A DNA stretch of 34,002 nt from a virus (taxonomy: Duplodnaviria > Heunggongvirae > Uroviricota > Caudoviricetes). Numbering within the stretch: the first letter of the stretch is position 1; each line of letters begins with the position of its first letter. Positions 1-33,060 of this stretch are shown here, piece by piece. A program made the position numbers and the translations under genes. The stretch spans positions 1 through 34,002 of IMG/VR virus record IMGVR_UViG_2623620506_000009; one strand, 5' to 3'. The notes below the pieces were generated by a model, which ran no database searches, had not been told where the DNA came from, and saw only the letters and a list, made by a program, of their open reading frames with translations.

Positions 1-726
1 TCACTTCGGGTATGGCTGAACCCTGAACAGCTTGGTGTTTAGGCGCTTTTTTGCGCGCTTATTCAGGAATCTGATGTAGCGATACTGATTAAATTTGTGT
101 ACCACGGCCCGCTCCTTATTAGCCCGTAAATACACACCTCGTTGCCCTCCGCGCTTAATCGCGTTCATCGCTATCTCGTGATACCACTCGCCGTCCAGTT
201 CGTAGAACGTGCTTTCGTGGCTGCCTATAAAATCAAAATTCGACGCCTGATATACCACGCCAGCACGTCCGCAGCGTTCATCTGCAAAGGACTGAACCCA
301 CTCCACTGACGGGTACAGTAACCTGATGGTTTTCAGCGCGTAGCTGATGGCCCGTGATTCAGAATTGCGGGGCATGTCGTCGTGTAACCACATGCGGTTC
401 AGTTCCATATAGCTCCGGTTATCCGTTTCCAGCACAACACGACGCCCTGAGTTGGGGTTAAGGGCATATCCCCACTGAAGAACGCCAACCAGGTCACGTC
501 CGCTGAATACGCCCAGATGCAGGTAGGAGTTATTCACAAAACGGCGGGAATAGTGTTTTGTCTGAATGATTGTGCGGGCCAGCCAGCAGGATATGGTTTC
601 AACGCGCAGCTCCTTTGAACCATAGCCAACAATCCGGCCTTCATACTCAATAACGCAGGGTTTTGTCAGAATGCGTGATTTCTTCTCTTTTCCCACAATA
701 CAGCTCCGTGGGATGCTCTTTGGCAT
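1..726 (-). CDS. mom: DNA modification protein Mom (adenine modification, anti-restriction)
   Basis: ATG at 726 (track ORF starts 4 codons upstream at 738); translation [30 protein letters not shown]... matches recalled Mu Mom along its length; stop TGA at 3..1; preceded by overlapping com. Confidence 0.9.
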
Positions 727-832
727 TCGATATGACAATGTAACGTTTACAGCGAGGGCATTTAATTTCTATATGCTTAAAACCTCCTTTAAACAGTAAT
801 TTATTGCAGTTTTTACAGCGAACAGAGTCCAT
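647..832 (-). CDS. com: Com, zinc-finger translational activator of mom
   Basis: ATG at 832 gives 61 aa [15 protein letters not shown]...IKCPRCKR...THSD: CxxC...CxxC zinc finger very similar to recalled Mu Com; its 3' end overlaps the mom start by about 80 nt as in Mu. Confidence 0.85.
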
Positions 833-859
833 GATTCCCCCTGTGTAATAACCAAACAT

Positions 860-955
860 AATCGCCCGGAGGGCTGGGGGTATTTAATCACAATCGATGC
901 AAACCGACGATCGATATGATGTTATCGATCGTCATAAACTATACATACTGATTAT
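860..955 (-). promoter_or_regulatory. mom operon control region with ATCGAT/GATC repeats (candidate Dam-methylation-sensitive promoter region)
   Basis: Noncoding gap upstream of com. Three ATCGAT hexamers at 893-898, 910-915, 924-929; two of them contain GATC (909-912, 927-930). Mu Pmom is known to be controlled by Dam methylation of upstream GATC sites. Confidence 0.45.
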
Positions 956-6814: not shown

Positions 6815-7256
6815 TAATGGTGGCCTCCCATCGGCGGGTGATTTCAATTGTGAGCGTGGTTTTGTCCGGGCGGGTTAACACCACCTGAAAGGCAATACGG
6901 TCAGGGACGATGATGCTGGCCGTGACGGTGGCGTTACGGGCGTAACCGGCCCGCAGCAGCGGTTGCATGGACAGCCGCGCGTAATCTTCCACACGCAGGC
7001 GGACATCTTCCGTCAGCTTTTCACGCTCAAGCAGCCACAGGCGGGAACCCCACGAAAAATCGCTGTACGTGTCGCCCGGCCAGCCGCGCGGGTCGCCAGA
7101 GCCGTCAGGAATGACATCATCGTCATCAGCACGGGCATCGGTGAAAAGGCAGATAAGAACCTGAGTGACCAGCCCCTCATCCAGTGAGAGGCCGTTATGG
7201 GTGACGGTGATGTCACCCCGTGAGAGCATGTTATTCCAGCGGATTCCTGTCGTCAT
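6804..7256 (-). CDS. baseplate protein (Mu gp46-like)
   Basis: 150 aa ORF; ATGA start/stop overlap with upstream gene; synteny. Confidence 0.65.
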   Translation of the reverse strand: MTTGIRWNNMLSRGDITVTHNGLSLDEGLVTQVLICLFTDARADDDDVIPDGSGDPRGWPGDTYSDFSWGSRLWLLEREKLTEDVRLRVEDYARLSMQPLLRAGYARNATVTASIIVPDRIAFQVVLTRPDKTTLTIEITRRWEATINAV

Positions 7257-7789
7257 ACGGGCGGTGATGTATTCTCATTGTCGCCGTCCTTATGAATGTG
7301 TTCGATGAATGATTTACCGTTGATTCTGACATCTTCAGTAAATTCACAGGGACCGACGAATTTCATTTGTTTACCGATAATATTCAGCAATTCGTCGGCG
7401 GTGAGATTTACCGTTTTCCCTGAAAAGTTTAATTGTTCTCCTGTGATTTCAATAATTCCGCCTTTCCTTAACGTGATATGTGATTTGCCGTCCTGGTGAT
7501 ACAGCCGGACGTCGCCGGTGGACAAGCCTTTAGGGCGACATCGCTTATCCTCCACCGCGATGGCAACCAGCCCGTCACGCCGTCCGCCCACGGCCAGCAC
7601 GATGGCTTCTGAACCTTCTGGCGGAACGGAAGTAAACCCGTAATTCTGGAAGCGTTCCACATCGTCATCAGTGGCATCTGCCAGCGTCTGGATTTGCAGG
7701 TTCTGCCGCTCCAGACTGTCAGACACCATGCGGACAATGGCACGGTCAACCATCAGCCGCAGACGGCGGGCAATGGCGTTTAATCCCAT
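7253..7789 (-). CDS. baseplate assembly/spike protein (Mu gp45-like)
   Basis: 178 aa ORF; position between hub and gp46-like gene; overlapping coupling. Confidence 0.65.
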   Translation of the reverse strand: MGLNAIARRLRLMVDRAIVRMVSDSLERQNLQIQTLADATDDDVERFQNYGFTSVPPEGSEAIVLAVGGRRDGLVAIAVEDKRCRPKGLSTGDVRLYHQDGKSHITLRKGGIIEITGEQLNFSGKTVNLTADELLNIIGKQMKFVGPCEFTEDVRINGKSFIEHIHKDGDNENTSPPV

Positions 7790-11971: not shown

Positions 11972-12167
11972 GCTGTTTCTCCAGTTGCTTTATCAGGCGG
12001 AACAGCTGCCGCAGGGGCAGCTGTTCCAGGTACTGAATGCTGAATCTCTGGGACAGGTTAACCAGCAGGTTCATCAGTGCCGCCGCCAGCGGCATCAGTT
12101 CGCCCCCGCGTTGCCACCTCCTCAAGCATGTCATCCAGCGCAGCAGCTTTGGTGCTGATAAGTTCAA
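11958..12167 (-). other. ORF overlapping the 3' end of the tail chaperone gene in the +1 frame and bridging to the tape measure start (candidate frameshift extension)
   Basis: 69-codon ORF with no ATG or SD of its own; overlaps the chaperone gene by about 110 nt and ends 13 nt past the tape measure ATG; G-run CGGGGGC lies in the overlap. Confidence 0.3.
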
Positions 12168-16364: not shown

Positions 16365-16414
16365 CTGCCTTTTAAAAGGCAGTTAAAAGGGCATTCACAG
16401 CGCCTTTTAACTGC
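16365..16414 (-). terminator. tandem hairpins just downstream of major head gene (attenuator/weak terminator or mRNA-stabilising structure)
   Basis: Perfect palindrome CTGCCTTTTAAAAGGCAG (16365-16382) and longer stem GCAGTTAAAAGGGC/GCCTTTTAACTGC (16379-16414) in the 78-nt gap after the major head stop; only a short U-run follows on the transcript. Confidence 0.3.
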
Positions 16415-16438: not shown

Positions 16439-17344
16439 TTATGCCGGGGTGGTGATGTACGGGCTGTCCACGATCTCCACATCCTTGTACCAGATGTTGG
16501 AATCGCCGCCGTTAACCAGCATGGCGTCAATAATGAGCTTCGCGTCCGCACGGTTTTTCGGCCCCACCACAAGGGTGGTCGGGCGGATGCCCAGCGGTTC
16601 ACCGTTGGTGCCCTTCATGCCCCGCAGCAACTCATTGGCTTTTTTGTAGTTCTCCACCGTCAGTGCCGCACGGGAACCGACGGCAGTCTGCCAGAAGCCG
16701 AAGCCCGCATTGCAGCGACCGTCCACCCCGTACAGGAACTCGTGGTTTTTGAAGGTGTGCTCGCTGTTCAGATCGTCCAGGGCTTCAAACTTAAAGGCGC
16801 GTCGCGTCTGCCAGATGATGGGTTTCAGCACCTGCGACTCATCAATCAGGAACCACGGTTCGCCCTTGTCTGATGCCGGGGTGCCGACAACGTTGCTGTA
16901 GGTGCCGTCACCCAGCGGGTGGTCTTCATCAAAGAAGTTCTGACCGTCAAAACACAGGGTGTTAAATCCGGCACACAGCAGGGCGTAACACAACTTGTCC
17001 GGGAATACGGCTGTCATACGGCCATAGCGTTCGGCAGTAATGCTGTACTGACCAATCTGGTCATCTTCAATGTGTTCGCGCTTAACGCGAATGGAACTTT
17101 CCCAGAGTTTGTTGGTGATGGTGTAACCATAACCGTCCAGCGTTGCCAGCTGACGCTCACCGACCCATTCTTTGATGTCCGGTAAATCTTTCATCCAGCC
17201 GTAGGTGTTGGAGGCGGACGAACTCGGCACCTCAGAAGCAATACGATTCCACTGCGGTTCGACACCACTCAGTCCACGGGTAAAGGCGGCGCTCAGGCAG
17301 GTGGTCAGCGCGTGAAGGATTTCAGAACTGACAGTCTGTCCCAT
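16439..17344 (-). CDS. major head (capsid) subunit (Mu T-like)
   Basis: 301 aa; follows protease/scaffold gene with 1-nt stop/start overlap; size and position match the Mu major head gene. Confidence 0.9.
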   Translation of the reverse strand: MGQTVSSEILHALTTCLSAAFTRGLSGVEPQWNRIASEVPSSSASNTYGWMKDLPDIKEWVGERQLATLDGYGYTITNKLWESSIRVKREHIEDDQIGQYSITAERYGRMTAVFPDKLCYALLCAGFNTLCFDGQNFFDEDHPLGDGTYSNVVGTPASDKGEPWFLIDESQVLKPIIWQTRRAFKFEALDDLNSEHTFKNHEFLYGVDGRCNAGFGFWQTAVGSRAALTVENYKKANELLRGMKGTNGEPLGIRPTTLVVGPKNRADAKLIIDAMLVNGGDSNIWYKDVEIVDSPYITTPA

Positions 17345-18306
17345 TAGTTATTCTCCTGTTTTGGTTTAGCGGCGAGGAACTCTTCCCCGGTAATACCCAT
17401 GCTGCGGCACATCGCCAGTTCGGCGTCGGTCAGCCTCTGCGCGGGTTTATCCTTGCCCTGGCTGGGCTTGTCGTTGTTCACCAGCGGCTGTGCGCCTCTG
17501 GTGTACTCCGCAAACTGTTTGCGGCCTTCTTCCGTGCGGCAGGTGGCAAGGAACATGTCACGGTTTGCCGGGGCCACTTTTCCGGCTTCGATGGCCGCAT
17601 CCACAAGCGCTTCTGCTTCCTTCTCTTCCAGTTGCTGAAGGCGTTGTTCTGCGGTTTCGGCACGGTTCAGTGCCAGATTGTGGGTTTCCACCGGTACAAA
17701 CTTCGTCAGGTCAGGTGTCTGTGCGCGGTTCAGCGCCACCTGTTCGTTCTCCTGAAGTTGTTTAATGGCGGCCACGGTATCGTCCACCGTGGCAGATTCA
17801 GCCAGCCCAAGCAGGCCGGTGATTTGCACAGGTACTGTCATCGGGTTTTTCTCCGTATTCAGTGCAGGAAAGTCCAGGTTAGGTTTGTTGGTCAGCCCGA
17901 CGCTGGACAGGCGCGTCACCACACCGTCTGCGTCAAAGAAAAACGCCGGGCTGTAATAGCGGTAACGGCGTTCGCTCAGCATCCACCGGGCGTACTCGCT
18001 CCAGACAACACGGCCTTCAATGGTGCCGCTGTCCGTCACGCGCAGTTCTTCCACCCAGCCATACGCCGGGGCTTCATCACCGCGTTGCCCTTTAATTTCG
18101 GTGGCGTGTTCAATGTCCACCGGAATTTTGATGTCGGACGAGCGGGTGACCACCTCATGCGGATTGCGGTTAATCCACGTCCGGCCATCGCGCCCGGTGA
18201 ACTCACCCGCAGGGACGAGTTCAAGCCATTCCGGCAGTTGAGCGGGTGTCAGCTCAGGGATGGGTTCTGGCAGGGAAAAACACAGCGCCAGCAGTTCCGG
18301 TTGCAT
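17344..18306 (-). CDS. head maturation protease/scaffold protein (Mu I-like)
   Basis: 320 aa; ATG 18306 with GGAGA SD; C-terminal coiled-coil/scaffold-like region; position before major head gene. Confidence 0.85.
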   Translation of the reverse strand: MQPELLALCFSLPEPIPELTPAQLPEWLELVPAGEFTGRDGRTWINRNPHEVVTRSSDIKIPVDIEHATEIKGQRGDEAPAYGWVEELRVTDSGTIEGRVVWSEYARWMLSERRYRYYSPAFFFDADGVVTRLSSVGLTNKPNLDFPALNTEKNPMTVPVQITGLLGLAESATVDDTVAAIKQLQENEQVALNRAQTPDLTKFVPVETHNLALNRAETAEQRLQQLEEKEAEALVDAAIEAGKVAPANRDMFLATCRTEEGRKQFAEYTRGAQPLVNNDKPSQGKDKPAQRLTDAELAMCRSMGITGEEFLAAKPKQENN

Positions 18307-18520
18307 GTCAGTCTCCGTCGTTTGGGGTTACCGACGGTCAGTATGCGGAAGGCAGAAAAAAAGCCGGATTTACCGGCTTCACTGAAAACGGGAAGAACAC
18401 CCCCTTCAAAACCCCTTCAAAAACGCCACAGCACCTTCAAAAAAGTCAGAATGCACATTCACGCCATCAGAATAAAAAACGCGTTTCTGATGCGTTTCAG
18501 GGGGATTTACGGCGGGAGGG
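18307..18520 (-). promoter_or_regulatory. repeat-rich central intergenic region (candidate late promoter and strong-gyrase-site equivalent)
   Basis: 214-nt noncoding gap between F-like and I-like genes, near the prophage midpoint; three CCTTCAAAA direct repeats (18403, 18414, 18434), GCGTTTC direct repeat, AAACGCGTTT palindrome, plus the terminator hairpin. Confidence 0.35.
18356..18381 (-). terminator. rho-independent terminator after the F-like gene
   Basis: Minus-strand transcript reads TGAAGCCGG-TAAAT-CCGGCTTTTTTT: GC-rich stem plus U7 tract; 26 bp identical to the terminator after mor. Confidence 0.6.
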
Positions 18521-23096: not shown

Positions 23097-23396
23097 TTAC
23101 GGTTCACGACAGCCCCCGTCTTCAGTTCCCGGTGTTTTCAGACCGGCGTATATTTCTTCGCGAACGGAGCGGATATCCTTACCCAGCAGCTTCCACAGCC
23201 GCGCACATGCCGGTGATGAACGCAGGGCACGTTTCATGGGGGTATCCAGTGCATCCGGGTTCCAGGGCTTTCCTGTATGTTTTTCGTATGCACGGACAAT
23301 GGCGTTTTGCTCGATATCTGCCAGCACAAGGCAGTACGCCAGCTGCCGCACGACGGCCCGTTCTCCGCGACTTAACGGCTTCAGTTTTCGGGCCAT
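23097..23396 (-). CDS. hypothetical protein (99 aa)
   Basis: ATG 23396 with GAGGGA SD, 2 nt after upstream stop; basic protein; no family recognised by eye. Confidence 0.5.
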   Translation of the reverse strand: MARKLKPLSRGERAVVRQLAYCLVLADIEQNAIVRAYEKHTGKPWNPDALDTPMKRALRSSPACARLWKLLGKDIRSVREEIYAGLKTPGTEDGGCREP

Positions 23397-23398
23397 GC

Positions 23399-23692
23399 TC
23401 AGTCCCTCGCACGGGGTTTTTTAACGCCCGGAACGCTGGACAGGCCGTTTGCCACATCCTCGCCGCTGCCGGTGATTTCAGCCACGTAACAGCCGCCCAC
23501 ATCAGACAGACGAACCAGCCCCTGCTCGCGCAGCCATGCAAGCTGGGTGCGCACCACATCACGGGATACCTTATGACCGTAGGCCTGAAGGCAGGTCTGC
23601 AACACGGATTCATTCGCGCTGTCGCCACAATCCAGCAGGGAACGCAGCAACACCAGACGACGGTCTTCAGTGAGGATCTCTTTCATCGCCAT
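23399..23692 (-). CDS. hypothetical protein, possible winged-helix fold (97 aa)
   Basis: ATG 23692 overlapping upstream stop (TAATG), AAGGA SD; LTEDRRLVLLRSLLD...VRTQLAWLREQGLV suggests a winged helix; function unknown. Confidence 0.5.
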   Translation of the reverse strand: MAMKEILTEDRRLVLLRSLLDCGDSANESVLQTCLQAYGHKVSRDVVRTQLAWLREQGLVRLSDVGGCYVAEITGSGEDVANGLSSVPGVKKPRARD

Positions 23693-23985
23693 TAATTTTT
23701 TTCCTTTAACTCGTTCTCTAATAACAAATCGCTGATGCGGGATACCTGGCGGATGGATGGCCCCAGTTCTTTGATTTCTCCCCGCAGATTGCTGATATCC
23801 AGTTGCAGGCGGTGGAACTCATCACGGTCGGGTAAATGGTGTACCTGGCTTTCCATCACCGACACGCGGGAACGGAGTGAATCAAACTCTTCGCGTTTGA
23901 CGTAGGTCTTTGCCAGAATCAACTGAAGCAGGTTTATTCCTGTCATCAGCAATGCCCACAGAATGGGCCAGTTGGCTCTGATCAT
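23692..23985 (-). CDS. small membrane/coiled-coil protein (Mu gp25, DUF2730-like)
   Basis: ATG 23985 (ATGA overlap with TraR-like stop); N-terminal hydrophobic helix WPILWALLMTGINLLQLIL then coiled-coil region. Confidence 0.55.
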   Translation of the reverse strand: MIRANWPILWALLMTGINLLQLILAKTYVKREEFDSLRSRVSVMESQVHHLPDRDEFHRLQLDISNLRGEIKELGPSIRQVSRISDLLLENELKEKN

Positions 23986-24209
23986 TTCCCAGGACACGTT
24001 TTCCTCCTGCGTTCCCGCATCTGCTGACAGTCAATACAGGTCACCACATCCGGCAGCGCCGCAAGGCGCTGTGCCGGAATAACGTTCCCGCAGTCATTGC
24101 AGAAGCCCCAGCTGTGGGGCGTTTCTTTTGTCCGTGTCTGCCAGGCTTTAACGACGCTCTGACGCTCGTTCAGAACCACTTCACTGATGCGATCGATTTC
24201 GTCGGTCAT
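23982..24209 (-). CDS. TraR/DksA-family C4 zinc-finger protein
   Basis: 75 aa; CNDCGNVIPAQRLAALPDVVTCIDCQ = CxxC-(17)-CxxC spacing typical of TraR/DksA zinc fingers; ATGA overlap with upstream gene. Confidence 0.75.
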   Translation of the reverse strand: MTDEIDRISEVVLNERQSVVKAWQTRTKETPHSWGFCNDCGNVIPAQRLAALPDVVTCIDCQQMRERRRKTCPGK

Positions 24210-24814
24210 TTCGGCCCCGCAGACATTTTGTGACGGCTTGATTTGCTGTAACGGGCAAAGCCGTCAAGGGTTCTTACACCGAGATAGCCCAGCGCCGGGG
24301 TAAGCAACATCAGCGTGATATCCCAGTCCGGTGATGGCATATGCAGCGTGATACCTCTGGCACCGGCAATGGCTCCGGCAATCTGGCCGCAGGAGAGCAA
24401 CAGCACATAGGCCAGACTGCTGTAACAGGAAAGGCGGGCCAGCAGCGGGCGTGTCTGGCGCACATAGCTGTCCGTGGCGTTGTCACCATTGCGGATGGTT
24501 TCCTGCTGTTCGTGGTGTGCGGCCTGCTGGTCAGCCAGCACCAGCTTCTGCCGTTCCACCTCCAGCTGTTGCAGCTGAATTTTCAGGGTTTCCAGTTGCA
24601 CCAGTTGCTCCGGTGACAGCATCACCAGTTTTTGTTCCAGAATGCGTTGCTGTTCAGCAACGGGAAGGCTTTCCCGGACACTTTCCACCATACCGGCCAC
24701 CGAGTCAGCGGCGGCAGATGTACTGCCACCAAACCAGCGCCCGACGGAACGAATCAGCCCCGGCCCAGCTTTCAGCAGAACAGAGGCGATGCCTGAAAGG
24801 GTTAACGGGTCCAT
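24206..24814 (-). CDS. lysis-associated membrane protein (holin-like; coiled-coil N-terminal half, hydrophobic C-terminal helices)
   Basis: 202 aa; Gln/Leu-rich coiled coil then hydrophobic stretches CYSSLAYVLLLSCGQIAGAIAGA and ITLMLLTPALGYLGV; in the lysis cassette. Confidence 0.5.
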   Translation of the reverse strand: MDPLTLSGIASVLLKAGPGLIRSVGRWFGGSTSAAADSVAGMVESVRESLPVAEQQRILEQKLVMLSPEQLVQLETLKIQLQQLEVERQKLVLADQQAAHHEQQETIRNGDNATDSYVRQTRPLLARLSCYSSLAYVLLLSCGQIAGAIAGARGITLHMPSPDWDITLMLLTPALGYLGVRTLDGFARYSKSSRHKMSAGPK

Positions 24815-25212
24815 GAATCCCCCTTATGAAAACGGCGCTGGTGTTTATAAAGCGCCGCGCAGCAGACACCGCCCAGCAAAAATGCCAGTTGATAAAGCTC
24901 TTTAAGAAAAAAGATGCTGAACACCAACATGAAATACCCGACGAACCAGACCACCCATGACCACACGACAATACGGCGAGAGGCTGGTCGATAGCGTCTT
25001 TTTGGTAGCAAGCGATAAGGCACATTGCCCAGTTGAAAGCTGTGAATCAGGCAGAGTGTCGCGCCATATGCCAACACCATGACCGCAAACGCCCGCCATC
25101 CGGCAAAACAGCTCGCCAGAAAAAGCACTGCCGACAGCCCCAGAAACGACCACGTGGACAACATAAAGCGGGAGTACATAACGCGATAAAAAAGACTATT
25201 CATTCTGTGCAT
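24802..25212 (-). CDS. polytopic inner-membrane protein (136 aa, about 4 predicted TM helices)
   Basis: ATG at 25212 with AAGGA SD; track ORF extends to GTG 25383 but the extension is Trp/Cys/Arg-rich and looks non-coding; strongly hydrophobic helices. Confidence 0.55.
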   Translation of the reverse strand: MHRMNSLFYRVMYSRFMLSTWSFLGLSAVLFLASCFAGWRAFAVMVLAYGATLCLIHSFQLGNVPYRLLPKRRYRPASRRIVVWSWVVWFVGYFMLVFSIFFLKELYQLAFLLGGVCCAALYKHQRRFHKGDSWTR

Positions 25213-25423
25213 TGAGTTTTTCCTTGTACTTCTGGCACTGCCAGAAAACGTCCCGTGTATCCACGGAGTTCCAGCCACGCATGTAGTAGCTGGCGTGTGT
25301 GCCGTCATGGCCGGTATAGTCCAGCGGTTTCGGGGGCGGACCTCCGGCCATGCGGTGCAGAACCTCCTGACGCAGGCGGTCACGCCGCCCGGCTTTCAGT
25401 GAGGCATCCCAGCCTTTGCCCAT
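25196..25423 (-). CDS. small basic hypothetical protein (75 aa)
   Basis: ATG 25423, 2 nt after the endolysin stop; fills the gap before the membrane protein gene; protein-like composition; no TM. Confidence 0.4.
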   Translation of the reverse strand: MGKGWDASLKAGRRDRLRQEVLHRMAGGPPPKPLDYTGHDGTHASYYMRGWNSVDTRDVFWQCQKYKEKLNAQNE

Positions 25424-25424
25424 A

Positions 25425-26021
25425 TCACCCCCGCGTGGCGGACATGATGCCCAGAGGGGTATCGATGATTTCCAGACAGGCGTCGGTCAGCTTTTCCATG
25501 CGGTTAAACCAGCCGTTCAGGTATTTGCCCTGGGCGGGTTTTGATTTGATGATGTCGGCATAAAAGCGGGAGCGACGGACAATACAGCGGGCCAGCAGCC
25601 AGTCAGGGGTGGACTGGCTCACGGCCTTGCGGGTACGCGGCCCGATGATGCCGTCAGCATCCACATCAGCGGCTTCCTGCAAAAGTTTGATAGCCTTTTT
25701 AACGCCATGCTGAACCGCCGCATCAAACACAAAAAGCGCCACGCCATCAGGCCACTGGTCACATCCGGCAGGCAGCCAGTAATCACGCAGGTAAATCTGT
25801 GCGGCCTGTTCGCGGGTTAAATCTTTGATGCGGGTATCCGGTTTACCGTCACCGTTGACATCGGTTTTGCCGTCAATCACACCGTCGCGGCGGTCAGAAA
25901 CGCCGTATTTGGTTTCGCCGCCACGGTCAGTGGAGTCATTGACATAGACGCCTTCGATATCGGGACGCAGAATGAAATTCAGCGCATGCTCAAAGGCCGG
26001 GGAGAATTTTTGATTTTCCAT
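25425..26021 (-). CDS. endolysin, glycoside hydrolase family 108 with C-terminal peptidoglycan-binding domain
   Basis: 198 aa; GH108 hallmarks GGETKYGV, YLRDYW, DGIIGPRTR; C-terminal NGWFNRMEKL region typical of the PG-binding module; AGGTG SD; first gene after the mor terminator. Confidence 0.85.
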   Translation of the reverse strand: MENQKFSPAFEHALNFILRPDIEGVYVNDSTDRGGETKYGVSDRRDGVIDGKTDVNGDGKPDTRIKDLTREQAAQIYLRDYWLPAGCDQWPDGVALFVFDAAVQHGVKKAIKLLQEAADVDADGIIGPRTRKAVSQSTPDWLLARCIVRRSRFYADIIKSKPAQGKYLNGWFNRMEKLTDACLEIIDTPLGIMSATRG

Positions 26022-26076
26022 AAAAACACCTGTGAAGCAGAGTTAAACGTGGTCTGCTTCATGGTGCCGGAGGCAT

Positions 26077-26102
26077 AAAAAAAGCCGGATTTACCGGCTT
26101 CA
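26077..26102 (-). terminator. rho-independent terminator of the early operon, directly after mor
   Basis: Minus-strand transcript TGAAGCCGG-TAAAT-CCGGCTTTTTTT begins 5 nt after the mor stop codon; identical 26 bp to 18356-18381. Confidence 0.65.
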
Positions 26103-26106
26103 TTGA

Positions 26107-26556
26107 TTAAGGGCGTCGTGGCGGACGACGAACGGGGTGAGGCAGGTTCGGGGAGGGGTAAAACAAATCCGGCTGGTATTTATTGCGCTCCAGACGTCGC
26201 ATCCGTTTGATGGCCTTGTAGACGGTTTTATACGTCACTCCGTAACGCTGAACCAGTTCAGGAATATTATGGCCGTTAAAATCACGCCAGATACGCATAT
26301 CCCGGACAAGATTCTCCAGAATATTCCCCCTCGGAACATAAACCTGCATCCCGCCGATATGGCGACAAATCGCCACAACCAGCTCAAGGGAATGAGCAGG
26401 GTCTGCGCCAATCCGGGCCAGCTCTTTACGCAGCAGTGCGTTCAGTTCAGAAAGTAACGCCGGATAAGCGGTGTTTTCCTGGTAATCATGAAGATATTCC
26501 AGAACGCTGTCGTCCCGGAGGTCTTCGAATAAATCCTGCTCTTTCATCTGTTTCAT
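26107..26556 (-). CDS. mor: Mor/C-family transcriptional activator (middle operon regulator Mor by synteny)
   Basis: 149 aa; conserved Mor core PALLSELNALLRKELARIGADPAHSLELVVAICRHIGGMQVYVPRG and C-terminal HTH YGVTYKTVYKAIKRMRRL; ATGA-coupled to gemA; followed by terminator. Confidence 0.85.
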   Translation of the reverse strand: MKQMKEQDLFEDLRDDSVLEYLHDYQENTAYPALLSELNALLRKELARIGADPAHSLELVVAICRHIGGMQVYVPRGNILENLVRDMRIWRDFNGHNIPELVQRYGVTYKTVYKAIKRMRRLERNKYQPDLFYPSPNLPHPVRRPPRRP

Positions 26557-27104
26557 ACAGCAATTCTCCCGCTGTTTCGTGCGCGGGCATACGCACTGGT
26601 CAGTGCATCATAGCCGCGCAGTTCCCGCCCGGATGGGCTTACAGGTAAAGGCACACCATGTCGGGCAAAGGCTTCACGGATGCAGCGCATGTGCCACTGT
26701 TTGAGCGTTTCGAGCACAACCTGCAACGATTCCCCGTGACACCATGCCAGCGTGGAAACACCCTGACCGCCATTACGTCTGGCCGTCAGGCGTTCAACGT
26801 ATTTGTCCAGCGCGGCGTCGCTGATATCGGATACGAAACCATCAAGAAACATCTGCTGCCAGATTTTATAAATCTTCTCGCGCGGTGTGACATGCCCCTT
26901 AAAGCGACGGCGGGGATGTTTATTCTGCTTTTTAAAACCGCGCTCTTTCATGGCATCGAGCACTTGTTCCAGTTGTGCAACGGACAGCTCGCGGCAACTG
27001 GTTTTGCCCGTGCACTGCACCAGAAAGGCGCGGTAAGTGTCATCGTCGAGGTGCAACTCCCGGCGGGCAACATGAATTAATTTAATCAGGGATGTGCGAC
27101 TCAT
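26553..27104 (-). CDS. gemA: GemA-like early protein (Mu gp16)
   Basis: ATG 27104 with AAGGAG SD (track ORF extends upstream); 183 aa MSRTSLIKLIHVARRELHLDDDTYRAFLVQ...; same length as Mu GemA; position before mor. Confidence 0.8.
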   Translation of the reverse strand: MSRTSLIKLIHVARRELHLDDDTYRAFLVQCTGKTSCRELSVAQLEQVLDAMKERGFKKQNKHPRRRFKGHVTPREKIYKIWQQMFLDGFVSDISDAALDKYVERLTARRNGGQGVSTLAWCHGESLQVVLETLKQWHMRCIREAFARHGVPLPVSPSGRELRGYDALTSAYARARNSGRIAV

Positions 27105-27471
27105 TTTGCCCCATCTCCTTAATGCAGTGTTTTTCGACCCATGCCACACGAGCAGAATTCAGGTGGCATCTGTCATGTAGGCATTCATCATGGTAGTGCA
27201 CGTTATCTACATTAAATGGCAGGGATTCATCCAGCCCACTCGCGACAAAATCCGCATGTAATTGTTCTAGCGCAGCCTCGCTGTCTGCTCCGATTGATTC
27301 AAAATAGTCATAAACATTGGCGCATAATCCGACTCCCCGAATAAACCCTTCCCCTTCCGTTTCTTGCGCTCCGTTTTTTAACCACTGGTTATAGGCGACA
27401 TAAAAATCATAAAGATGTTTTCTGGTGCTGGCGGATGCGGATTTAATTTCATTTTTCTCTGCGTTATTCAT
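27082..27471 (-). CDS. hypothetical early protein (129 aa), Cys/His-rich C-terminus
   Basis: ATG 27471 with GAGG SD; C-terminal HYHDECLHDRCHLNSARVAWVEKHC suggests metal binding; no family recognised. Confidence 0.55.
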   Translation of the reverse strand: MNNAEKNEIKSASASTRKHLYDFYVAYNQWLKNGAQETEGEGFIRGVGLCANVYDYFESIGADSEAALEQLHADFVASGLDESLPFNVDNVHYHDECLHDRCHLNSARVAWVEKHCIKEMGQNESHIPD

Positions 27472-31071: not shown

Positions 31072-33060
31072 TTAAATGGCTTTTTTACGTCTGTTCTGTT
31101 CCAGAATATCCAGCGAATGATTCAGATATTCATCACGATCAGTTTCATATTCATCATCGGGTTCCTGGTATTTCACCTGCACCGTGTTACCGGAAGGCCG
31201 GAAAATACCAACAACCCTTGATTCTGGCGCTGCTGGTTCGGCTATCTGCGGCAGCAGTTCAGCAACTTCCAGCGCGTCCATTTGCTTCTGCGCCTTAATG
31301 GCTGCTTTAGTTGCAGATTTCAGTTGTTTCTGGCGGCGGCGATATTCACGACCTGCCGCAGCATCATTAAATGCAACAGGGGCCAGACATTCCGCTTCAC
31401 AGATAAACCGACCGTCCAGGGTGTAGCAATAAACCGTGCTGTGTAGCTGCTGTGGATCAAACCTGACCACAACTTTTTTCACTCCGGCATTCATTAATGC
31501 CATGTTGTAATAAACGTTTTTCGCGCCTTTAAGGGAGCCGCCAACTTTAAGCGTAAACTCGCCTTTGCGTGAAACGTTCACCGCCTCAGCAGGCAGTAAC
31601 AGCATCCGTTTTTGTTCTTCGGTTGGCTTACGCACAATCGTTCTGGCGTATTCACGCTCGAAAACATCATCAAACGAGAGTTTGCCCCCGCACATTTCTG
31701 TTTCACGTCCTGTTCTGGCATTGAACATCGCCACACCTTCGGCAAGGGTTTTCAGAAACAGCTCTGCATCAACAGCACGGTCGCCATAGTTATCAGGTTT
31801 TGCCTGCGGATTTGGCCCCGTATATGCACCAGCCAGTGCCGGATGCTTATCAACGTATTCCTCAAGCCCACCAACACCGAAAGCACGTTCAACAGGTTTT
31901 GCCTGGCCCCAGCCTTTACCGGCAACAACGCTTGTCCAGTGCATTTTCGCGCCCATCAGTAAAAACAGTCCCTTTGGATCGTCCTCTTTCACCTTAAAGC
32001 GGTAGCGATTGGGCGCGCCCCCCGTCAGCCATTTATTCGCTGCACCACGGGTGTTATCAATGGTGATGTGAAAATCCTCCGGGATGCCGTAGCGTGTCAC
32101 CACATCCATGAACGAGAGGCGAATTGAATCGATGTTCTCGCTTACATCGCAGCGCCAGCCCAGAATTTTTCGGGTTTTCACATCCTGCCAGAACCATGTT
32201 TTCGGGCGGATCACATCGCCGTTAAACCAGCGTACAAAGACGTTATGCAGATAACCGTCGCCGTTGATCCACTGCATGGCGTCCAGGTGTTCCACAGTTC
32301 GCTGCTGTGCCGGTATCAGATGCATCAGTGCATGTTCACCTTCACGGCAGGCAACAACCATTGCCTCATCCAGTTGCTGAATCCGGCGAAAGGCCGTGGC
32401 ACGGGAGGGAATACTCCAGCCATGCTCGCGGGCTGCCAGCTCCAGACGCTCATAACATTTGCGGAAGGCGGGTTTTTCTGGTCGCAGATAATCTGCAATC
32501 AGAAACTGCCAGGCATCCTCGTCAAATTCACTTTTGTGAACATTGCGACGAGATGCACCACGTCCATCAACAAGTGCTGCCGCCCAGTCAGGCTTCGCAA
32601 ACTTCTGTACCTGGTAATACTTGTCCCGCAAAGTGGATGCGCTGACCTGGTAATGCCCTGCAACGGTCGCAAAAGCCGTTTTCGTTGAAATCCCCTGGTT
32701 CAGCATTTCGTCTGCAGCCTGAACCGCAGGCAACCATTTTTCAGCAAGTCTGCGCTGGGAATTGCTGGCGTTATCCCATTTGCTCCACAGTGCCTCACGA
32801 TCATAATCATGGGCTTCCAGCGTGGGGCGGGCGATTTCAAAACGGCCCTGGCTTGTTTCAATACCTCCTTGTTGCAATAAAATTTCAGCACGTAATGCAA
32901 CAGGAAATGATTTGATATTGAATTCAAATGATACACCTTTAGTACCTGTAACTTGCCTAAACACCCAGCCTTCTCTTTGTGCCTTACGTGTAATGTTAGT
33001 TGCTTGCTTTGGCAAACCAGCAAAACCAAGCAATTCTTTCGCTGTATACCACTCTTTCAT
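31072..33060 (-). CDS. A: DDE transposase A (MuA), D108-type N-terminus
   Basis: 662 aa; from about residue 70 ([26 protein letters not shown]...) matches recalled Mu A through the catalytic core and C-terminus (...[19 protein letters not shown]); N-terminal 70 aa differ from Mu as in D108. Confidence 0.95.

Follow-up and report, generated by a model that had tools for sequence, protein, structure and literature searches.

Phage Mu is the textbook example of a three-tier transcription cascade, which runs from the early genes through Mor and then C to the late genes. The locus described here raises the question of how the late genes are switched on in a Mu-like phage in which mor is followed directly by an endolysin gene. 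The stretch of DNA that was analysed, 34,002 nt in length and referred to as the window, is a nearly complete Mu-like E. coli prophage with the phage genes on the minus strand.

Gene order and the Mor/C-family regulator

The layout of the window is as follows.

33478 onward, plus strand: repressor
31072-33060, minus strand: transposase A, with ner before it and B after it in the gene order
26553-27149, minus strand: gemA, preceded by early genes and followed by mor
26107-26556, minus strand: mor, 149 aa (Pfam PF08765 Mor)
Between mor and the endolysin gene, minus strand: spacer of 85 nt
25425-26021, minus strand: GH108/PG_binding_3 endolysin (Pfam), at the head of what reads as the first late operon
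25196-25423, minus strand: homolog of Mu gp18 (phmmer, E=7.5e-33), with two membrane proteins, the TraR/DksA-like, DUF2730, 97-aa and 99-aa proteins downstream
23982-24209, minus strand: TraR/DksA-like ORF (Pfam, PHROG scans)
23692-23997, minus strand: DUF2730 ORF (Pfam, PHROG scans)
23399-23692, minus strand: 97-aa ORF, a homolog of Mu gp26
23097-23396, minus strand: 99-aa ORF (Pfam, PHROG scans)
Further 3', minus strand: gp27, terminase, portal, head genes, tail genes, com and mom
17344-18306, minus strand: I-like head protease (phmmer; annotated by PGAP as "phage protease" in a near-identical prophage), at the head of what reads as the second late operon
647-859, minus strand: com
1-738, minus strand: mom, with whose stop codon the window ends

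A 99.9% identical prophage lies inside the efflux gene mdtO of E. coli XJ34 (NZ_CP098231). It carries one extra ORF of 167 aa beyond mom, outside the equivalent of the window, and its tail-fibre region is annotated as pseudogenes, unlike that of the window. The prophage type was matched in 83 of 5,426 complete E. coli genomes, some of which hold two or three such prophages each. In Mu, gp18 is the first gene of the middle operon; here its homolog stands directly after the endolysin gene. The profile phrog_2121 (284 positions) spans this homolog, part of a 136-aa membrane protein and a 202-aa protein with three transmembrane segments (24206-25423, minus strand), its positions 3-75 corresponding to the gp18 homolog and 91-273 to the 202-aa protein. 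Sharing of one profile suggests that the three are a single fused protein in other phages. The 202-aa protein also has a weak match to GTA_holin_3TM. Elsewhere in the window, perfect inverted repeats with 12-bp arms occur at 11999-12027, between the tail-assembly and tape-measure genes, and at 16379-16414, in the 78-nt gap 3' of the major head gene.

The Mor protein of the window matches PF08765 at E=3.6e-30 with 104.6 bits (cutoff 24.9). Its identity is 63% with Mu Mor and 32% with Mu C, and it has in common with both the invariant residues G68, G69, Q71, Y73, P75 and G77. With the PF08765 match, an N-terminal half that is acidic, the conserved GG.Q.Y.P.G linker and a helix-turn-helix at the C-terminus, it bears the hallmarks of the Mor/C family. 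Both its identity and its synteny after gemA mark it as an ortholog of Mor and not of C, and its DNA-binding region is almost identical to that of Mu Mor. At its C-terminus (26107-26160, minus strand) is a proline/arginine-rich extension of ~17 residues, YPSPNLPHPVRRPPRRP, which Mu Mor does not have; in relatives below ~90% identity tblastn Mor matches end at residue 131-132, before the extension, and the QPDLF that precedes it resembles the C-terminus of Mu C.

The original prediction held that no gene C lies between mor and the lysis/head operon, that Mor is the single Mor/C-family regulator of the window, and that a profile search might yet reveal a divergent C homolog at 23399-23692 or 23097-23396. 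The first two claims are borne out and no such homolog was detected at either position. The endolysin gene comes directly after the mor terminator, and the distance given as about 55 nt is 55 nt from the end of the T-tract at 26077 to the ATG at 26021. A phmmer search with Mu Mor, Mu C and window Mor as queries against the 770 six-frame ORFs of at least 25 aa in the window matched the mor ORF alone (26110-26607, minus strand), the next best having E > 1, and a Mor/C profile HMM, derived from the two Mu proteins together with members of the clade, had just one match in the window at E<=1 (5.1e-67) and no second paralog. In Pfam and PHROG scans neither the small ORFs, those for the 97-aa, 99-aa and TraR-like proteins among them, nor the 167-aa XJ34 ORF matched Mor, and PGAP annotates one Mor-family protein in the whole XJ34 prophage.

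The same picture emerges from the relatives. A GH108 gene follows mor in 56/56 IMG/VR loci that extend past mor, in which Mor is 64-99% identical, and the order in these loci is gemA, mor, GH108, gp18, 3-TM protein, TraR, DUF2730, 97-aa, (99-aa), gp27 and onward to I. It recurs in loci from Pluralibacter, Raoultella, Klebsiella, Serratia, Kluyvera, Brenneria and Trabulsiella. No second Mor/C-family gene was found in 59 related viral contigs, and no second Mor/C match within +/-10 kb of the locus in the 56 IMG/VR loci and about 10 Enterobacterales genomes. A profile search of genome contigs with the Mor/C alignment gave 18 loci, which suffices for host range and not for a census of one- and two-activator phages. 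Given these contigs and genomes, and published descriptions of relatives (PMC4553209), the C-less arrangement is real and less unusual than originally implied.

Predicted Pm-type promoters ahead of the late operons

In Mu, the middle promoter Pm is bound by Mor at a 16-bp element at -51 to -36, with Mor dependence demonstrated experimentally; it lacks a -35 element but has a -10 hexamer and, at -55/-54, a subsite for alpha-CTD (PMC4390567, PMC4287176). This UP subsite consists of -55A and -54A, which come from the mor stop codon (PMC4390567). With the numbering fixed by primer JM6, in which -51 to -48 is AGTA (PMC4390567), the Mu sequence has the box AGTAAAGCCGGTTAAT, overlapped by the early terminator stem-loop, a seven-T run at -30 to -24, the hexamer TATCCT at -13 to -8 and the mor stop codon at -56 to -54. 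The window spacer aligns with Mu Pm free of gaps and with identical spacing, and the corresponding elements are these.

26107-26109, minus strand: mor stop codon TAA, at -56 to -54 as in Mu
26089-26104, minus strand: predicted Mor box AATGAAGCCGGTAAAT, at -51 to -36, identical at 12 of 16 positions to the Mu Pm box
26077-26100, minus strand: intrinsic terminator of the early operon, arms AAGCCGG and CCGGCTT around TAAAT and then seven T, overlapping the Mor box
26061-26066, minus strand: -10-like hexamer CACCAT, where Mu Pm has TATCCT
26053 (about +/-2 nt), minus strand: predicted transcription start, by homology with the mapped +1 of Mu Pm

Likeness to Mu extends from the placement of the box over the early terminator, here over its left arm and loop, to the seven-T run, the distance to the hexamer, the lack of a -35 element (the region is CCGGCT) and the AA at -55/-54 supplied by the mor stop codon. 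Differences are of degree, as the box departs from that of Mu Pm at 4 of 16 positions and has weaker dyad symmetry, and the -10 is weaker, CACCAT matching TATAAT at 3 of 6 positions. At the same distance from the T-tract the relatives have CACTAT, CAAAAT, CACACT or TAAATT, and all of them keep the Mor box at the spacer. The spacer has the sequence features of a Pm-type promoter, with a site centred at -43.5, no -35, a recognisable -10 and A/T at -55/-54. The 85-nt spacer is in these respects the positional homolog of the Mor-dependent promoter Pm of Mu, and on the basis of this homology Mor binding, Mor dependence and the start site are predicted.

A second module of the same kind precedes gene I, and a candidate third lies further downstream.

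18356-18383, minus strand: second module, with Mor box AGTGAAGCCGGTAAAT (18368-18383), terminator hairpin and seven T
18340-18345, minus strand: -10-like hexamer CATACT of the second module, spaced as in the first
About 18332, minus strand: predicted second start
18315-18337, minus strand: gene I leader dyad CCGTCG-N11-CGACGG, before the protease ATG at 18304-18306
7377-7421, minus strand: candidate for a third Mor-type promoter, within the V-like baseplate gene 7253-7789

The 21-mer TGAAGCCGGTAAATCCGGCTT, which covers box and terminator, has exactly two copies in the window where 0 are expected, the second at 18361-18381. Both are on the phage strand ahead of an operon start, and each is followed at equal spacing by GCCT.C.GCA and the hexamer. 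Both terminators (26081-26101; 18360-18380) have an 8-pair stem, a 5-nt loop and a seven-T run, and these two are the sole terminator-like sites with a seven-T run on the phage strand. A full-length promoter PWM matched the two modules alone in the window. Given this duplication, the late region reads as two operons, each with a putative Mor-type promoter at its head, which overlaps the terminator of the operon before it. Three direct repeats TTTTGAAGG(T/G)G lie at 18400-18444 (minus strand), just upstream of the second Mor box, with another hairpin at about 18455-18500; the same region in relatives has TTTTAAACG-type repeats, and in Mu similar TTTTTAAA repeats stand beside the annotated central gyrase cut site.

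In all loci compared, 56 from IMG/VR and about 10 from Enterobacterales genomes, the module is directly before GH108 and a box is found before gene I; every box match in every related locus falls at one of these two places. Most relatives (L017-L063) have an insert of 0.4-0.8 kb between mor and the promoter module, absent from the window phage, and these inserts encode varied small proteins with signal-peptide-like or transmembrane-like N-termini. As the inserts are upstream of the terminator, they are part of the early operon. The module adjoins GH108 even when such an extra ORF (0.4-0.8 kb) stands between it and mor. Ahead of gene I, the box persists (e.g. AGGGAAAGCGGTTAAT) also in loci whose terminator has a decayed right arm, which points to selection on a protein-binding site and not on the terminator.

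The candidate third promoter came from a looser box pattern, whose only match in the window beyond the two modules is AGGGAAAACGGTAAAT at 7406-7421, followed after 23 nt by TATTAT at 7377-7382. This box is retained in relatives at 64-70% protein identity, and is treated as a candidate because it overlaps the coding sequence of a conserved GK(T/S)VN motif, which is partly present in Mu gp45. It may be the equivalent of Mu PP. The box lies ~165 nt before a gp46-like gene and is flanked by an 8-bp inverted repeat, CCGACGAA / TTCGTCGG (7391-7398 / 7353-7360).

These elements can be assembled into a model in which early transcription from the left end would yield Mor and stop at the terminator at 26077-26100. 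Mor would then occupy the box at 26089-26104 and recruit sigma-70 RNA polymerase to a promoter that has CACCAT and no -35, with transcription starting near 26053 and directly driving the endolysin, lysis, packaging and head genes. The module at 18356-18383 would both end this first late operon and restart transcription for the protease, capsid and tail genes, possibly with a third box at 7406-7421 and with no C tier. Mutation of GAAGCCGGTAAAT would be expected to abolish Mor-dependent activity of the promoter modules. The original prediction had offered two alternatives, direct activation of the late genes by Mor or a takeover of the role of C by the TraR-like, 97-aa or 99-aa protein. Pm homology and the identical box/terminator element ahead of the second late operon together make the first the most likely, and a two-tier cascade in which Mor acts directly on the late operons is, in our judgement, strongly favoured by the sequence. 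No C paralog is found downstream of the Mor-dependent promoter, and the sites at the lysis genes and gene I are of Mor type where a three-tier cascade would have C-type boxes at its late promoters.

The takeover would have Mor switch on only a replacement activator, which then does the job of C, and the small proteins do occupy the region where C sits in Mu. TraR-family proteins act on RNA polymerase, and the 97-aa protein has weak winged-helix-like Pfam matches (E about 0.02). Against this, none of the three proteins belongs to the Mor/C family, and the 97-aa protein has its homolog in gp26 of Mu, a phage that encodes C as well. TraR/DksA proteins bind the secondary channel of the polymerase and, to our knowledge, do not recognise promoter DNA and are not sequence-specific DNA binders. 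The candidate activator genes would moreover be downstream of a Mor-type promoter, inside the operon that they would activate, and the second late operon has the same Mor box and not a different site. A replacement activator is on these grounds improbable. A C-type activator encoded outside the window, at the unread right end of the prophage or in another prophage, is barely credible, for while the window ends at the mom stop codon and some E. coli genomes hold two or three such prophages, the only XJ34 prophage ORF beyond the window is the 167-aa protein with no Mor match, no clade locus has a second Mor/C gene within +/-10 kb and the late promoters bear Mor-type and not C-type boxes.

Direct activation by Mor shifts the roles of the promoters relative to Mu. 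There, the output of Pm is confined to a short middle operon (gp18-gp20 and C), whereas in the window the Pm-type promoter would drive lysis and head genes and a second copy, or possibly a second and a third, would head the remaining late genes. The slots themselves, one ahead of the lysis/head genes and one ahead of gene I, both overlapping the preceding terminator, are those of Mu late promoters; unlike in Mu, the window has no C gene and the sites in these slots are Mor-type, not C-type.

A predicted leader hairpin of the endolysin gene

Ahead of the endolysin gene, and spanning the predicted start, lies an inverted repeat whose relation to the promoter and the ribosome-binding site forms the second part of the model.

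26033-26041 and 26053-26061, minus strand: 9-bp dyad TGAAGCAGA / TCTGCTTCA, exact, with an 11-nt spacer
26026-26068, minus strand: predicted leader hairpin, with the 9-bp dyad as core and an outer stem of GGCACC (promoter, -10 region) with GGUGU (Shine-Dalgarno)
26027-26031, minus strand: endolysin Shine-Dalgarno (SD) AGGTG (from the sequence and ORF list), with the ATG at 26019-26021

The dyad had been described correctly as 9 bp with N11 at 26033-26061; its end is 11 nt before the endolysin ATG, and not 13 nt as first given. The spacer had not been recognised as a promoter and the dyad was left unexplained. Judging from the predicted fold and from complementarity in relatives, the dyad appears to be part of a larger hairpin. 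When the window was simulated with a first-order Markov model, perfect inverted repeats with arms of 9 bp or more and a spacer of 3-20 occurred at a mean of 2.8 per 34 kb, corresponding to about 0.007 in 85 nt, and the dyad is retained or compensated in relatives.

The predicted start at 26053 is the final base of the left arm of the dyad, so that the 5' half of the hairpin would be promoter (-23 to -1) and the 3' half would hold the endolysin Shine-Dalgarno and AUG. Since the 5' half is upstream of +1, only read-through RNA could form the hairpin. Transcripts that read through the terminator would contain both halves and have the ribosome-binding site (RBS) masked, whereas Mor-dependent transcripts, beginning inside the left arm, would be translatable. 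The region 26010-26110 (101 nt, with the terminator hairpin included) folds at -33.4 kcal/mol (z=-5.5), and in the MFE fold the SD is paired, the AUG partly paired, and GCACC pairs with GGUGU. Relatives keep hairpins at the leader position with different sequences, the arms differing and the complementarity staying; lineage-specific promoter/RBS pairs include GCCUGC/GCAGGC, CCGGCA/UGCCG and CCGGAA/UUCCGG, and GCCCUC/GAGGGC in Yersinia phage vB_YpM_5.

RNAalifold found no consensus structure in a MAFFT alignment of 21 leaders, as the register of the pairing changes from lineage to lineage, and for this reason per-sequence folds, duplex energies and a cognate/non-cognate permutation were used. 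The promoter segment (-23 to -1) was more complementary to the RBS segment (ATG-16 to ATG+3) than its shuffled versions in 32 of 42 unique leaders, with a median z of -3.5. Cognate promoter-RBS pairs have a mean duplex energy of -16.1 kcal/mol vs -10.4 for non-cognate pairs, and 0 of 5000 permutations were as good, a p-value that is optimistic because the lineages used are related. Opening the RBS takes 14.3 kcal/mol in read-through RNA vs 7.2 in RNA from the predicted +1, the difference exceeding 2 kcal/mol in 27 of 31 GH108 leaders; for the window-type leader the values are 12.4 and 6.3 kcal/mol. Opening energy is the sole measure that separates the two RNAs, since the mean unpaired probability of SD to AUG, or of the SD core alone, barely differs between them. 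The gene I leader of the E. coli clade has no masking difference (9.0 vs 9.4 kcal/mol). An Rfam scan of the whole window returned nothing at the gathering score, and a sub-threshold sroD match on the terminator only.

The likeliest role of the dyad, though at no better than even odds, is as the core of an RBS-masking hairpin that silences the endolysin gene on read-through RNA. Among other readings, the hairpin might instead act within the late transcript as a 5' stabiliser or an RNase III site, or serve as a second, tandem terminator. 5' stem-loops are known mRNA stabilisers, in the E. coli clade U4-5 follows the hairpin, and the placement of the start by analogy with Mu leaves room for an upstream start, which the stabilising version needs, upstream of 26068. 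Other lineages, by contrast, have no U-tract after the hairpin, there is no alternative -10 element upstream of it, the Mu start is experimental and its spacing to box and T-tract is identical in the window, and the complementarity specifically covers the SD and AUG. We regard such roles as unlikely. Less likely still is that the dyad is a DNA operator through which a dimeric regulator gates the late promoter at -10/+1. It is a perfect palindrome across the predicted -10/+1 region and its half-sites are spaced by two helical turns (20 bp from centre to centre); however, its arms are wholly different between lineages and yet complementary, the gene I dyad of the same phage has another sequence, and the complementarity reaches the SD/AUG, which fits RNA pairing. 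Such covariation, and the difference between two promoters of one phage, make an operator a poor explanation. As a recurring operator, TGAAGCAGA was rejected, with no other mismatch-free copy and with 1-mismatch copies in coding DNA. The full model, which joins the two-tier Mor cascade to the RBS-masking hairpin, seems to us on balance probable from the sequence.

Other phages and the com-mom region

Loss of C with lys beside mor is already in print for relatives of this phage, and current knowledge is not overturned by the present locus. In Mannheimia 3927AP2 and phiMhaMu2 and Haemophilus SuMu, lys (GH108 + PG_binding_3) is directly downstream of mor and there is no C (Niu et al. 2015, PMC4553209). 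By their published description these phages, unlike the window, have no typical com-mom module, and no promoter, Mor-box duplication or leader hairpin is described for them (PMC4553209). In a limited full-text literature search, neither duplicated Pm-type modules nor a promoter-RBS hairpin was found described.

A different combination is found in Yersinia phage vB_YpM_5 (MT374853, 4549-6949), in which mor is followed by a near-identical copy of Mu Pm and then by a GH108 homolog, gp18, C and a Mu-type lysozyme. This hybrid phage carries two muralytic enzymes, of which one is encoded by a middle gene. Together with vB_YpM_6 (Muvirus) it resembles the window in the order mor, promoter, GH108, gp18 and in a GH108 RBS complementary to the promoter spacer; unlike the window, the two phages keep C, Plys and the Mu-type lysozyme, with GH108 as a middle gene in a three-tier cascade. 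GH108-gp18 is therefore a Pm-driven cassette even in a C-bearing phage.

T4 gene e, soc, gene 49 and I-TevI are established cases of translational control by a hairpin (PMC3014915). As in T4 gene e, the endolysin RBS of the window would be sequestered by a hairpin whose 5' arm is upstream of the late start, so that early read-through RNA is silent and late RNA translatable. The phages and sequences are unrelated, T4 uses gp55 late promoters where the window would use activator-dependent sigma-70, and in the window the sequestration of SD and AUG in upstream transcripts is a prediction. It is tempting, but to be held tentatively and with slightly more doubt than belief, to read the promoter DNA of the first late operon as doubling as the anti-RBS strand, so that where a transcript starts decides whether the lysis gene is translated. 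A large enterobacterial clade would then have a switch convergent with that of T4 gene e and tied to a collapsed, Mor-only cascade, and the read-through would come from the early operon or from host genes flanking the randomly inserted prophage. If real, a promoter-embedded hairpin would be a guard against premature lysis in a phage that inserts randomly into transcribed host genes. A two-tier prophage would also offer a simple natural setting in which to ask what is gained from the C tier, whether timing, mom control or clamp coupling, and three related natural sites allow tests of Mor specificity.

A further observation counts against the model, namely that com-mom is retained with neither a recognisable Mor box nor an intact C box at Pmom. 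The two genes are intact, and the Dam-site cluster upstream of com (860-955, minus strand) is kept and includes a palindrome with 11-bp arms at 906-933. No Mor-type box was found at Pmom by eye, with the full-length promoter PWM or with the box pattern. In place of the C box of Mu Pmom, ATTATGCCCCAATAAC, the window has ATTGTGATTAAATACC, and the stretch ahead of the -10 is shorter by 11 bp. In the region upstream of com, TGATTAAATA is present twice, about 77 nt apart.
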